Positions 27,874 through 46,808 of a stretch of DNA of 64,000 nt are shown in pieces. The number at the start of each line of letters is the position of its first letter. The stretch's first letter is position 1. A program made the position numbers and the translations under genes. The DNA comes from an uncultured Actinomycetota bacterium (lineage in GTDB: Bacteria > Actinomycetota > Actinomycetes > Mycobacteriales > Mycobacteriaceae): assembly GCA_963708995.1 (NCBI GenBank), contig CAVPUR010000011.1, positions 15,682 through 79,681 of the forward strand. Direction: 5' to 3'. Under the pieces are notes generated by a model. It was not told the DNA's origin. It searched no databases and saw nothing but the letters and a program-made list of their open reading frames with translations.

Positions 27874-30528
27874 TCAGGTAGGCGCGGGCACCTCGACGGA
27901 TTCTGCGTCTTTAGACTGTGGACCCGACTGTGCGGCCAGCTCCGGCATCTGGCCGGCCAGGTACTCGCCGAGCCCGCCGATCGTCGGGTAGTCGAATACC
28001 GCGGTAGCGCTGATCGTGAAGGCGCCGCCGAACTGGCTGTGCAGCCGGTTGCGGAGTTCGACCGCCATCAGTGAATCCGTCCCCAGGTCCAAGAACCGAC
28101 TGGTTGCGGCCGGCGGTTGCGCGAGCCGCAAGAAACCCTGCACTTCGCGCTGCAGGAATTCGGTAATGAAACCGGCGCGCTGCGCGGCCGGTATCTCCTG
28201 CAACTGCTTGAGCATCTCACTGTCGCCGGTCGCCTCCGAGACAGCACTTGGCAACACCAGGTCGAGTATCGGCGGACGCGCACCGCCCAGCAGCTTGGCG
28301 GCACGTTGCCAGTTGGCCTTGATGACGGTTGCCTGCCCCGTCCCGGTGGCGACAACCTCCGCGAGCGCGCCCAGGGCCGCCGTCGGTTCCAGCGGAATGA
28401 GGCCTTGCGCACCGATATTGGCGCGCGCGGCCTCCGAAGACGCCATGCCCCCCTGCGCCCAGGGACCAAAGTTGATCCCGGTTGCCGGCAGGCCGCGCGC
28501 CTTTCGATCCGCGACCAGTCCATCGAGCAACGCATTGGCGGTCGAGTAGTTGGCCTGACCGGGTGAGCCAAGCAAGCTGGACACCGAGGAGGACACGATG
28601 AAGAAGTCGAGGTCGTCGTCCTTCGTCAACCGGTCTAAGTACATCGCACCGAACGCCTTGGGCGCCAACGTCGTCCAGAACCGCTCCAGGGTCTGCCGTG
28701 ACAGCAGCGCGTCGTCGAGCACGCCGGCCAAATGCGCCACTCCCGCGAGCGGAGGCAATTCCGCGCGGATCCGCTGCAGTAGATTTTCGACTTGCGCCTC
28801 GTCGCCGACATCGGCCGCGAAGGTATGGATCCCGCACCGGTAGCGCTCGGTGATGTCCTCAATTGCCCGCTGCGCCTGCGCATCGGGTGCACGGCGACTG
28901 GTCAGCACGATGTCACCGGCCCCGAGTTGGGCTAGATACGACGCGGTGTGCAGGCCGATGGCGCCGAGCCCCCCGGTGATCAGGTAGCTCCGGTCGCCTC
29001 GCAGCTGTAATGGGTTCGGCATTTGCAGGACGATCTTCCCGATATGCCGCGCTTGCTGCATGCGGCGAAACGCCGTCTTCGCCTCAGTGAGCGGGTAGAT
29101 CTCGGCGGGCAGTGGCGTCCACTCGCCCGTGGCCAACCCGTCCGACACCTCATCGAGCAAGCCACGAATGCGGTCGGGGTCTTGCATGCTTGTCATGTCC
29201 AACGCGACGATCTCGTAGGCGATATCGGGACGGGCCGCCGCCATCTGCTCCGGAGTCCAGATGTCTCGCTTGGCGATCTCGACGAAACGGCCATTCTGGG
29301 CGGTGGCCCGTACCGTTGCCTCGATAAATCCCTCGTGGGTCAGGCTGTTGAGCACCACGTCGACGCCGGCACCGTCGGTATCGGCAAGGATCTGGTCGGC
29401 GAAATCCATATTGCGCGAATCGTAGACATATTCCACACCCAGCTTGCGCAGGGTCGCGCGTTTGTACGTGCTTGCCGTGGCGAAGACAATCGCACCTTGG
29501 CGTTGCGCCATCTGGATCGCGGCCAATCCGACACCACCGCTTGCGGCGTGAATGAGCACACGGTCACCGGGCTTCAGCTGCGCCCAGTCGAACGCGAGCC
29601 GCGTCGTGAGTGCCGCAGCCGGAATGGTGGCCGCGGCCACCGCGCTGAGCCCGTCGGGCAACGGCGCCAGCAACTGAACCGGCACATTGAACCGGCTGGC
29701 GAACGCGCCCTGCATGAAGCCATAGACGCGTTGGCCGACCTCGAGTCCGGTGACGCCACTACCTAACTGGGTGACGATGCCGGCGAAGTCGCCGCCGAGC
29801 GGGCCCGGATCGCCCGGGTAAAGGCCCAACACATTGAGCACCTCCCGGAAGTTCAAACCGCCGGCCTCCACCCGGACCTGCACAAGGCCCTCGGCCGGCG
29901 GCGACACCTCCGCCTCGATCAGACGCAGGTTGTCGATCGCGCCGCGTTCAGTGGGCGCCAGCACGTAATCTGTTCCACGCGGAACCGCCAGGTGACCACC
30001 CCGCGCCCAGGGCAGTAACCGGGACGCCAACAACTTTCCTTGCCGCACAGCGAGTTCGGGTTCATCGACCGGAGTGCTGAGAAGACCGGCCAGCGCGTGC
30101 ACGGCCTGCTCTGATCCGTCGGAGTCGACCAGCCTGCAGCGCATGACCGGTTCCTCGTTGACGATGGTGCGCCCGAGTCCCCACAGCGCCGCCTGCACCG
30201 GGTCGACCGGCTCGCCGGGTTCGGTCGCCACGGCCCGTTCAGTGATGATCCACAGACCACCGGGAAGTTTGACCGCCGCCGAGTCATCAGTGGCCTCCAG
30301 GGTATGCACCGCGCTGAGCAGATGGGCGATTTCGGTTTCCAGGCGCGCGGCAGATTCAGCGCTCGACTCTTCCGCACTCGGTCCCGAACTGCGCCAGACG
30401 ATGCCGGCGAACGGCTCACCGCGCTCGTGAGCCTGCGCCAACAGCTGCCCCAAGCAGCTCCGGATCGGTATTCCGGTCAAAGGTGATGCAGCCCGGCAGG
30501 TCGGCCGCCAGTTCGTCGAATCCGGCAA
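27874..30528 (-). CDS. PKS fragment 4: ER-KR2-ACP2
   Basis: Genuine part starts at about 30450 (QLLAQAHERGEPFAGIVW...). ER NADPH motif LIHAASGGVGLAAIQ, KR motif YLITGGLGAIGL with LDD, and ACP LGTDSLMAVEL. No thioesterase domain. Confidence 0.9.
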   Translation of the reverse strand: MPDSTNWRPTCRAASPLTGIPIRSCLGQLLAQAHERGEPFAGIVWRSSGPSAEESSAESAARLETEIAHLLSAVHTLEATDDSAAVKLPGGLWIITERAVATEPGEPVDPVQAALWGLGRTIVNEEPVMRCRLVDSDGSEQAVHALAGLLSTPVDEPELAVRQGKLLASRLLPWARGGHLAVPRGTDYVLAPTERGAIDNLRLIEAEVSPPAEGLVQVRVEAGGLNFREVLNVLGLYPGDPGPLGGDFAGIVTQLGSGVTGLEVGQRVYGFMQGAFASRFNVPVQLLAPLPDGLSAVAAATIPAAALTTRLAFDWAQLKPGDRVLIHAASGGVGLAAIQMAQRQGAIVFATASTYKRATLRKLGVEYVYDSRNMDFADQILADTDGAGVDVVLNSLTHEGFIEATVRATAQNGRFVEIAKRDIWTPEQMAAARPDIAYEIVALDMTSMQDPDRIRGLLDEVSDGLATGEWTPLPAEIYPLTEAKTAFRRMQQARHIGKIVLQMPNPLQLRGDRSYLITGGLGAIGLHTASYLAQLGAGDIVLTSRRAPDAQAQRAIEDITERYRCGIHTFAADVGDEAQVENLLQRIRAELPPLAGVAHLAGVLDDALLSRQTLERFWTTLAPKAFGAMYLDRLTKDDDLDFFIVSSSVSSLLGSPGQANYSTANALLDGLVADRKARGLPATGINFGPWAQGGMASSEAARANIGAQGLIPLEPTAALGALAEVVATGTGQATVIKANWQRAAKLLGGARPPILDLVLPSAVSEATGDSEMLKQLQEIPAAQRAGFITEFLQREVQGFLRLAQPPAATSRFLDLGTDSLMAVELRNRLHSQFGGAFTISATAVFDYPTIGGLGEYLAGQMPELAAQSGPQSKDAESVEVPAPT

Positions 30529-45059: not shown

Positions 45060-46808
45060 GTGACCAACACGCCTCAGTCATCCATTCTCTCGATGCTGCA
45101 TGGACGCGCCAGCCTGCGGCCTGATGACGTAGCGTTCACTTTTACCGATTACGTCGACGACTGGGCGGGCGTTTCCGAAAGTCTCACGTGGTCGCAATTA
45201 TCCCGCCGAACATTAAATGTGGCACGCGAGCTCAGCCGGCATGGGTCGGTCGGAGACCGAGCAGTCATCCTGGCTCCCCAGAGCCTCGATTACGTTCTGG
45301 CTTTCCTGGGATCCCTGCAGGCTGGGCTGATCGCGGTTCCGCTGCCGTTGCCGCACCGCGGCTCGAGTGACGACCGGGTGAACGCGGTGCTTGCCGATAC
45401 GTCGCCCGCAGTCGTTCTCACTACGTCAGCGGCCGCGGAAGACATCGCCAAATACGTTGACCAAGCACACCTCGACACTGTTCCGAAGATCCTCGAAATC
45501 GATTCGTTCAATCTGGACGCCGATGGCGCGCCACAGGTTCGGACGGCTGATTTGCCCAACGTCGCGTATTTGCAGTACAGCTCTGGTTCGACCCGACTGC
45601 CGACCGGGGTCAAGATCTCGCACCAGAACCTTCAGATGAATTTCGAGCAGCTGATGCGCGGCTACTTCGCGGACACCCCCGTCAAGGTTCGAGCGAGTAC
45701 CACGTTTGTGTCGTGGTTGCCTTTTTACCATGACATGGGTTTGGTGCTGGGAGTCTGCGCACCAATCCTGAGCGGCCATCGTGTCGAGCTGAGCAGTCCG
45801 ATTGCGTTTCTGGAAAGGCCAGCCAGATGGATGCGATCCCTGGCCGCAACTCCGCACACATTTTCAGCCGCGCCAAATTTCGCCTTTGACTTGGCCGCGC
45901 GCAAGACAACCGACAGCGACCTGGCCGGGCTCGACCTCGGGGGGGTGCTAGGCATCATCAACGGTGCCGAACGTGTCGAGCCGGCCTCCTTGAGACGCTT
46001 CGTTGATCGGTTCGCTCACTTCAATTTCCGCGACACTATGGTGCGTCCGTCCTATGGGTTGGCGGAGGCAACCGTCTTCGTGGCGACCGGCACCTGGAAC
46101 GAATCAGCGGAGGCGGCTCGCTTCGATCTCGTGGAGCTGGCCGCGGGCCGAGTTCAGCGGTCTTCGGCAGGGACTGGCACAGAGCTGGTCAAATACAAAG
46201 TGCCGCAATCGCCCACGCTGCGGATCGTCGACTCCGACACCAACCGCGAGTGCCCGCACGGCTTAGTCGGCGAGATCTGGGTACATGGCCCCAATGTCGC
46301 CGACGGCTACTGGCGCAAACCGCCCGAGGAGCAGCGCTGCTTCGGCGCAACACTCGTCACCCCTTCCCAGGGCACGCCCGACGGGCCTTGGCTGAGAACC
46401 GGCGACCTGGGTTTCATCTACGAGGATGAGCTGTTCATCGTCGGTCGCATCAAGGATCTGCTGATCATCCGAGGGAGTAATCACTATCCCGAGGACATCG
46501 AGACCACGGTCCAGGGGATCACCGGCGGTCGGGTCGCGGCGATATCGGTTCCGGTGAACAGCACGGAGAAACTCGTCACCGTCATCGAGCTCAAGAAGCG
46601 CGGCGATTCCACCGAGGAGGCGATGCGGTGGCTCAGCGGGGTCAAAAGCGACGTCACCTCGGCGATATCCAATGCCCACGGCCTGACCGTTGAGGACCTC
46701 GTTCTGGTATCGCCCGGATCGATCCCCACCACGACGAGCGGCAAGATCCGGCGCGCCGAATGTGTCGAGCAGTACCGCCTGGACCAATTCACTCGGTTGG
46801 ACGCCTGA
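45060..46808 (+). CDS. fadD: Fatty acyl-AMP ligase (FAAL-type FadD)
   Basis: 582 aa, GTG start. [18 protein letters not shown]...[40 protein letters not shown] and [13 protein letters not shown] are typical of FadD21/23/26/32-type FAALs. Confidence 0.9.

Follow-up and report, generated by a model that had tools for sequence, protein, structure and literature searches.

A trehalose polyphleate-type locus of an uncultured Mycobacterium with three, probably artefactual, frameshifts in its polyketide synthase gene

Trehalose polyphleate (TPP) is a surface glycolipid that is linked to clumping, cording and virulence of Mycobacterium (M.) abscessus, and the therapeutic phages BPs and Muddy depend on it for infection. 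The locus considered here occupies positions 27874-46808 of a 64,000-nucleotide stretch of DNA (contig CAVPUR010000011.1 of assembly GCA_963708995.1; the whole stretch is referred to as the window). It holds a gene set of the kind that makes such acylated trehaloses, and the frame of its polyketide synthase (PKS) gene, pks, is broken by three single-base insertions. These observations raise the question of which lipid the locus would make, and whether the organism can make it at all. In the reading preferred here, the region is orthologous to the TPP locus of mycobacteria, the three insertions are most likely consensus errors of a long-read assembly, and the locus would be functional; this combined claim is given a probability of roughly two in three.

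The DNA is mycobacterial, with a G+C content of 60-71%, and the closest species-representative genome is a soil metagenome-assembled genome (MAG), MFD01138.bin.1.5, with 93-95% nucleotide identity to the window. The host is an uncultured Mycobacterium of the slow-grower type. Five components are contiguous in the locus, as identified using Pfam and NCBIfam, i.e., a minus-strand pks that is divergent from plus-strand papA-mmpL-PE-fadD (Table 1). The E-values of the matches range from 1e-13 (Condensation domain of PapA) to about 1e-295, and the matches are therefore not due to chance. A preliminary description, made from the sequence alone, had listed a fatty acyl-AMP ligase (FAAL) FadD, a thioesterase-less PKS, a PapA, an MmpL and a secreted PE-PPE-domain serine hydrolase, and each of the five was found exactly where it had been placed.

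The assignment to TPP is well supported by sequence comparison because of the family to which PE belongs, the length and domains of the repaired Pks, the gene order and the match of PapA to PapA2 rather than PapA5. The PE protein scores 631.4 bits against the curated NCBIfam equivalog “acyltransferase PE” (NF041570, cut-off 580), with residues 1-348 aligned to positions 1-351 of the profile. Its PE-PPE domain (PF08237, 224 bits), the serine motif GLSEG (residues 140-144) and a signal-like N-terminal segment agree with the secreted hydrolase that had been anticipated; no relative of PE was found among solved structures. In PapA the HxxxD catalytic motif is conserved (it reads DHVHGD), and the protein aligns over its full length with the structure of M. 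tuberculosis PapA2 (6AEF; 492 bits, E 2e-146), while no PapA5 chain was matched in the same PDB search at E<=10. A best match of PapA to a component of phthiocerol dimycocerosate (PDIM) synthesis, named beforehand as an outcome that would speak against a trehalose-lipid locus, was thus not observed in this search, and a PDIM-type PapA5 system is not supported. The open reading frame (ORF) listed for papA spans 39338-40780 (+), but the true start is probably at 39359, because the homologues are composed of 473 residues; the closest 120 cluster representatives listed in the homologue search are all at least 79% identical.

The two remaining plus-strand products are equally recognizable. MmpL scores 591 bits with Pfam MMPL and 913 bits with NCBIfam TIGR00833 (cut-off 875), and among solved structures it is nearest to MmpL4 and MmpL5 rather than MmpL3. 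FadD scores 980 bits with the NCBIfam fatty-acid--AMP ligase model PRK05850 (cut-off 775) and is closest to the FadD21 model (NF038337; 949 bits, below the cut-off of 1100) and to the FadD23 structure (PDB 8HD4; 720 bits).

The pks gene is listed as three ORFs of 443, 2382 and 884 residues, in which Pfam identifies KS, AT-KR-ACP-KS-AT-DH(N) and ER-KR-ACP domains, respectively. Upon repair of the frame these ORFs become a single protein of 3,696 residues with two modules, in the order KS-AT-KR-ACP-KS-AT-DH-ER-KR-ACP. A thioesterase domain was not found in this protein using Pfam, and the chain ends only about 27 residues beyond the last ACP. All active-site motifs are present: DTACSSS twice, GHSVGQY and HAFHS twice, HxxxGxxxxP and two DSL ACP serines. 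Both AT domains thus carry the malonyl-type motifs GHSxG (GHSVGQ) and HAFH. In PKSs, these AT motifs denote specificity for malonyl extender units, which yields unbranched products. From the motifs and this established knowledge, the extender units of the Pks are predicted to be malonyl. The earlier statement that the locus lacks a methyl-branch-type PKS holds, i.e., the enzyme is bimodular with malonyl-type ATs and is not a single Mas-like module.

A biosynthetic route can be proposed by homology from work with M. smegmatis and M. abscessus (PMC11633156, PMC10465359). The FAAL FadD would adenylate a fatty acid, forming acyl-AMP, and load the Pks. The two-module, malonyl-specific Pks, in which one module contains KR only and the other DH-ER-KR, would act iteratively to produce long, unbranched, polyunsaturated C36-C40 phleic acids. 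Being without a thioesterase, it would pass its product to the PapA3-type acyltransferase, where trehalose would be esterified to 2,3-diacyltrehalose. This precursor would be carried by MmpL10 across the plasma membrane, after which secreted PE would transfer phleoyl chains between precursors at the cell surface, i.e., outside the cell, to give TPP. In our interpretation, the four-carbon CH=CH-CH2-CH2 repeat of phleic acid is consistent with a KR-only module and a fully reducing one acting in turn.

The TPP locus of M. smegmatis (MSMEG_0408-0412: pks, papA3, mmpL10, fadD23, pE) contains the same five gene families as the window, although the order of pE and fadD, as given by the gene numbering, differs. 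The M. abscessus locus, compared by its published description, encodes a Pks (MAB_0939) of 3,697 residues that is described as having a “second AT domain”, to be compared with the 3,696 residues and two ATs of the repaired window protein, and the window order papA3-mmpL10-pE-fadD23 fits the order implied by the listing of the M. abscessus genes (PMC10465359). In both species pks is divergent from papA, as in the window, while the window pks alone is described with three +1 insertions, in the assembly. The same arrangement, with pks on one side and papA-mmpL-PE-fadD on the other, is found in an M. avium-type contig (GCA_020275145.1; its PapA is named M. avium by NCBI). Here, pks is intact and the products have sizes of 3,679 (Pks), 473 (PapA), 1002 (MmpL), 376 (PE) and 578 (FadD) residues, with 73-87% protein identity to those of the window. 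The contig also has the same downstream DAP_DH_C-like gene and mmpS/mmpL (73-92% protein identity for this wider comparison), but an additional SfLAP-family gene separates fadD from the DAP_DH_C-like gene. M. avium is a reported producer of TPP (PMC5524727). The genomic context, which the preliminary description had considered undescribed, is in other words found in M. avium too, on the downstream side at the least.

In a scan of species-representative genomes, relatives of the window PapA were identified at 441 places. Of these 441, the best 80 are at least 80% identical, most of them with the same gene set, and all five genes are intact in nearly all isolate genomes among these best 80 related loci. 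The same locus arrangement is found in about 80 other Mycobacterium genomes, and the TPP locus is widespread among slow-growing mycobacteria. Thus, as had been suggested, the window contains a relative of a described pathway rather than a wholly new system. Two isolate genomes stand apart, namely those of M. bohemicum DSM 44277, where a 10-bp deletion and further indels are present in pks, and M. talmoniae ATCC BAA-2683, where mmpL10 is split in two frames; it is possible that these are genuine TPP-negative species.

Given this assignment, the question is whether the frameshifts in pks are real. In comparison with seven relatives, the gene carries three single-base insertions, fs1, fs2 and fs3 (at about 37649, 30974 and 30453), which are its only indels of a length that is not a multiple of three. 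When aligned with intact relatives using tblastn, it is resolved into four segments, 38967-37650, 37648-30975, 30973-30454 and 30452-27874, in frames -2, -3, -1 and -2, respectively. Each insertion is found at a position that varies among related haplotypes, and here the window resembles both alleles in tandem (Table 1); fs3 is situated within a cluster of 7 mismatches relative to contig L081 (30437-30500).

Near-identical contigs (99.2-99.8%) from other samples were retrieved by exact look-ups of a KS fragment, a 427-residue PapA, the second MmpL and an ATP-grasp protein; exact-protein look-ups with the PE and the 582-residue FadD of the window gave no match. One of these contigs, ERZ25039537:contig_80396 (99.4% identical), does not contain fs1 and encodes a single 3,697-residue Pks ORF together with a 582-residue FadD. 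In Logan SRR28023306 (99.8% identical) the frame is open across fs1. The contig ENA ERZ25039525:contig_171950 shares fs1 only and has a +1 insertion of its own in codon 4 of fadD. The insertions fs2 and fs3 are private to the window, and fs2 is missing from every near-identical contig that covers its site. A scan of JGI metagenomes for the fs1 alleles found nothing, and that for fs2 found only 83.5%-identical contigs with a single-base allele, which are uninformative on the window strain.

The pks gene is under purifying selection. The ratio of non-synonymous to synonymous substitution rates (dN/dS) is 0.15 on the window branch and 0.23 on the sister branch. Between two contigs that both bear fs1 it is 0.33 (23 synonymous and 22 non-synonymous changes; P=2.5e-4 against neutrality), which resembles the values for neighbouring genes. 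In addition, one-base insertions outside homopolymers are abundant in the pks genes of related long-read soil MAG contigs, with about ten in a single pks. Private one-base indels also occur in sister contigs, one of which displays 78 gap openings in 10.5 kb. Outside pks, the window itself contains one further single-base frame change, the fourth, at about 52385. Here, a GDSL lipase and DegV are fused in one 557-residue ORF (51513-53186, minus strand), while they are two genes in the near-identical contigs L082 and L083; the window has one base less than L083 (GACATCT is changed to GAC-TCT) and 11 extra bases compared with L082.

Because near-identical contigs carry an intact pks or lack two of the three insertions, pks is under purifying selection and such insertions are common in related long-read MAGs, a consensus error of long-read assembly over mixed, co-occurring strains is the more likely cause of the insertions. 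On this reading, the TPP locus of the organism would be functional. The preliminary description had alluded to a “pks-repaired” derivative. The frame is indeed broken, by three +1 insertions, but these are probably assembly artefacts and not a lesion that needs repair.

Four observations weigh against the preferred reading. Of the four frame-changing single-base indels three are found in pks, which makes up 17% of the window (P about 0.02 under uniform error). The insertion fs1 recurs in a separately assembled contig from another sample and could therefore be a real inherited mutation. Furthermore, frameshifts in pks are a documented natural route to loss of TPP and to phage resistance (PMC10465359). 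Finally, module 1 has no DH of its own, such that the domain order alone leaves the formation of double bonds unexplained.

A serious, albeit unlikely, rival explanation is that the locus is the same TPP locus and that all three insertions are real. The strain would then be TPP-negative, with a dead pks and intact papA3, mmpL10, pE and fadD23, as a result of a recent strain-level loss of a surface glycolipid that doubles as a phage receptor. The clustering in pks and the presence of fs1 in an independent contig speak for this explanation, and there are precedents: mutants and clinical isolates of M. abscessus lose TPP through frameshifts, deletions and insertions in pks, which leads to resistance to BPs and Muddy (PMC10465359), and pks of the isolate M. 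bohemicum DSM 44277 is also disrupted, including by the 10-bp deletion. With three indels only, neutral substitutions accumulated after inactivation would be too few for a detectable increase in dN/dS. However, pks is intact in near-identical contigs, there is purifying selection between the two fs1-bearing contigs, and the same class of error pervades related long-read MAGs. All three changes are +1 insertions at haplotype-variable sites, where they resemble merged alleles, while bacterial pseudogenes are usually biased to deletions.

The insertions need not have a common origin. It is doubtful that fs1, at the least, is a genuine mutation for which a natural soil population of a single Mycobacterium species is polymorphic; if true, strains with an intact pks would co-exist with strains in which pks is broken or split. 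Such a population would offer field evidence either of gain and loss of the TPP phage receptor in the environment or of a working PKS that is split into KS1 and a remainder.

The latter, i.e., a real but not inactivating fs1 together with erroneous fs2 and fs3, is very improbable. The natural split would yield a free 443-residue KS1 and a 3,250-residue remainder that starts from a GTG. This arrangement is suggested by the succession of the stop, a Shine-Dalgarno-like GAGG and a GTG 8 nt past the stop, at a domain boundary just after KS1. The gene caller indeed gives a 3,250-residue product from the GTG behind fs1 in the ERZ25039525 contig, and purifying selection is seen between the two fs1-sharing contigs. 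On the other hand, the KS and AT of a type I PKS are joined by a structured linker, docking domains are not present, and the insertion is missing from both of the closest contigs in which the site is covered; a recurrent consensus error at fs1 would account for the purifying signal just as well.

It is hardly credible that the product is an acyltrehalose of the diacyltrehalose/polyacyltrehalose (DAT/PAT) or sulfolipid-1 (SL-1) type: the PapA, MmpL, FAAL and PE-PPE hydrolase families are common to all three pathways, the top-scoring model for FadD is FadD21, the FAAL of the PAT locus, and the sole solved relative of PapA is the SL-1 enzyme PapA2, yet the PKS is bimodular with malonyl-type ATs instead of one Mas-like methylmalonyl module and PE scores above the cut-off of the TPP-specific equivalog. 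In the M. tuberculosis SL-1 locus (pks2, papA1, papA2, mmpL8, chp1, stf0) it is PapA2 with which the window PapA aligns over its full length. The window differs in having one PapA only, its pks fragments score 431, 984 and 475 bits with the Pks2 equivalog NF041183 (cut-off 2400), and no sulfotransferase domain was found in the ORFs of the window that were scanned; an SL-1 locus is therefore not supported, in agreement with the earlier argument from the missing sulfotransferase. The M. tuberculosis DAT/PAT locus (pks3/4, papA3, mmpL10, fadD21, chp2) shares the logic of the window, in which a FAAL is followed by a PKS, PapA, MmpL and an extracytoplasmic PE-PPE transacylase. The PKS for PAT has one Mas-like module only and produces methyl-branched acids. 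A DAT/PAT locus is argued against by the two PKS modules of the window, with their malonyl-type ATs, and by the FadD21 score, which is below the cut-off (949 against 1100 bits). In the DAT/PAT pathway, the extracytoplasmic PE-PPE-domain transacylase is described to remodel a diacyltrehalose (PMC4183827). The original choice of TPP over SL-1 and DAT/PAT is hence sustained by the PE equivalog, the bimodular malonyl-type Pks, the PapA2-like PapA and the synteny with M. avium.

Other origins of the insertions were considered as well. Uniform random sequencing error is rejected, since the insertions cluster in pks, and an ancient pseudogene is rejected based on the dN/dS of 0.15 and the intact motifs. 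Repeat-driven misassembly between the modules is partly rejected: fs1 is found at the edge of the similarity between KS1 and KS2, but fs2 and fs3 reside in unique DH sequence.

One more mycobacterium with a TPP locus, which is of a known and widespread kind, adds little. The more general lesson is one of method, i.e., an 11-kb PKS that looks “pseudogenised” in a metagenome-derived contig is not to be trusted at face value, because near-identical contigs show an open frame. Should the frameshifts prove real, they would be a sign that a phage receptor is lost in nature.

Table 1. Features of the TPP-type locus, its downstream neighbours and the three insertions in pks (window coordinates).
Feature	Position	Strand	Basis or remark	Alleles at insertion site
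pks, bimodular type I polyketide synthase, no thioesterase	27874-38967	-	Pfam on three ORFs and repaired protein, tblastn	
pks/papA divergent intergenic region	38968-39358	.	ORF positions	
papA3-like acyltransferase, condensation-domain family, 473 aa	39359-40780	+	Pfam Condensation; PapA2 match	
mmpL10-like RND transporter, 998 aa	40853-43849	+	Pfam MMPL; NCBIfam TIGR00833	
pE, secreted PE-PPE-domain serine acyltransferase, 370 aa	43890-45002	+	NCBIfam NF041570; Pfam PE-PPE PF08237	
fadD23/fadD21-like fatty acyl-AMP ligase (FAAL), 582 aa	45060-46808	+	NCBIfam PRK05850; FadD23 structure	
DAP_DH_C-like dehydrogenase, downstream neighbour	46924-47982	+	Pfam	
mmpS, downstream neighbour	48152-48595	+	Pfam	
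second mmpL, downstream neighbour	48592-51507	+	Pfam	
fs1, +1 insertion, end of KS1	37649	-	TGA stop after residue 443; GAGG..GTG 8 nt downstream, true frame	some relatives CTGG-AGTC; others GAGGA-AGTC; window CTGGAAGTC
fs2, +1 insertion, inside DH	30974	-	near residue 2665 of repaired protein	some relatives CAC-GGTC; others CAC-CGTC; window CACGCGTC
fs3, +1 insertion, DH-ER linker	30453	-	near residue 2838 of repaired protein	some relatives GCTGC-TGGGG; others GCTCT-TGGG; window GCTGCTTGGGG

The intergenic region between pks and papA presumably holds the promoters of both genes, a role that is assigned from its position. The downstream trio (46924-51507), composed of the DAP_DH_C-like gene, mmpS and mmpL, is also found 3' of the TPP genes in the M. 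avium contig and in the near-identical contigs. These are not known TPP genes; a functional link to the locus is possible, as is mere synteny. The lipid locus as a whole, with two fadE genes, the DAP_DH_C-like gene and the mmpS/mmpL pair, is located between comEA and DegV. On one side it is flanked by sirA, cysH, cysTWA-subI, a GH15 trehalase gene, lepA, holA, comEC and comEA, and on the other by DegV, gpgP, rsfS, nadD and proA. We take this neighbourhood to correspond to Rv2391-Rv2434c on the M. tuberculosis map.

A few minor observations concern individual genes. The two neighbouring acyl-CoA dehydrogenase (fadE) genes (25559-27845, plus strand) adjoin the 3' end of pks. In the sister contigs L081 and L082 a different extra G is found in each within the first 10 nt of fadD (window 45065-45069), and FadD is called with 571 instead of 582 residues. 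A gene for a metallo-beta-lactamase-fold protein (16355-17260, plus strand) is intact in the window, while it is broken in both L084 and L085, two near-identical contigs of separate assemblies (ENA ERZ25039525, NCBI GCA_049590415.1), by an extra T near 16901 (GGGTT is changed to GGGTTT). Compared with L085, the window carries a 14-bp tandem duplication (CGCTCAGCAGGCGG) at 13085-13098, immediately 3' of lepA. Beside lepA, a PemK/MazF-type toxin gene is called in the sister contig L084 (15671-16240, approximately window 15226-15795).

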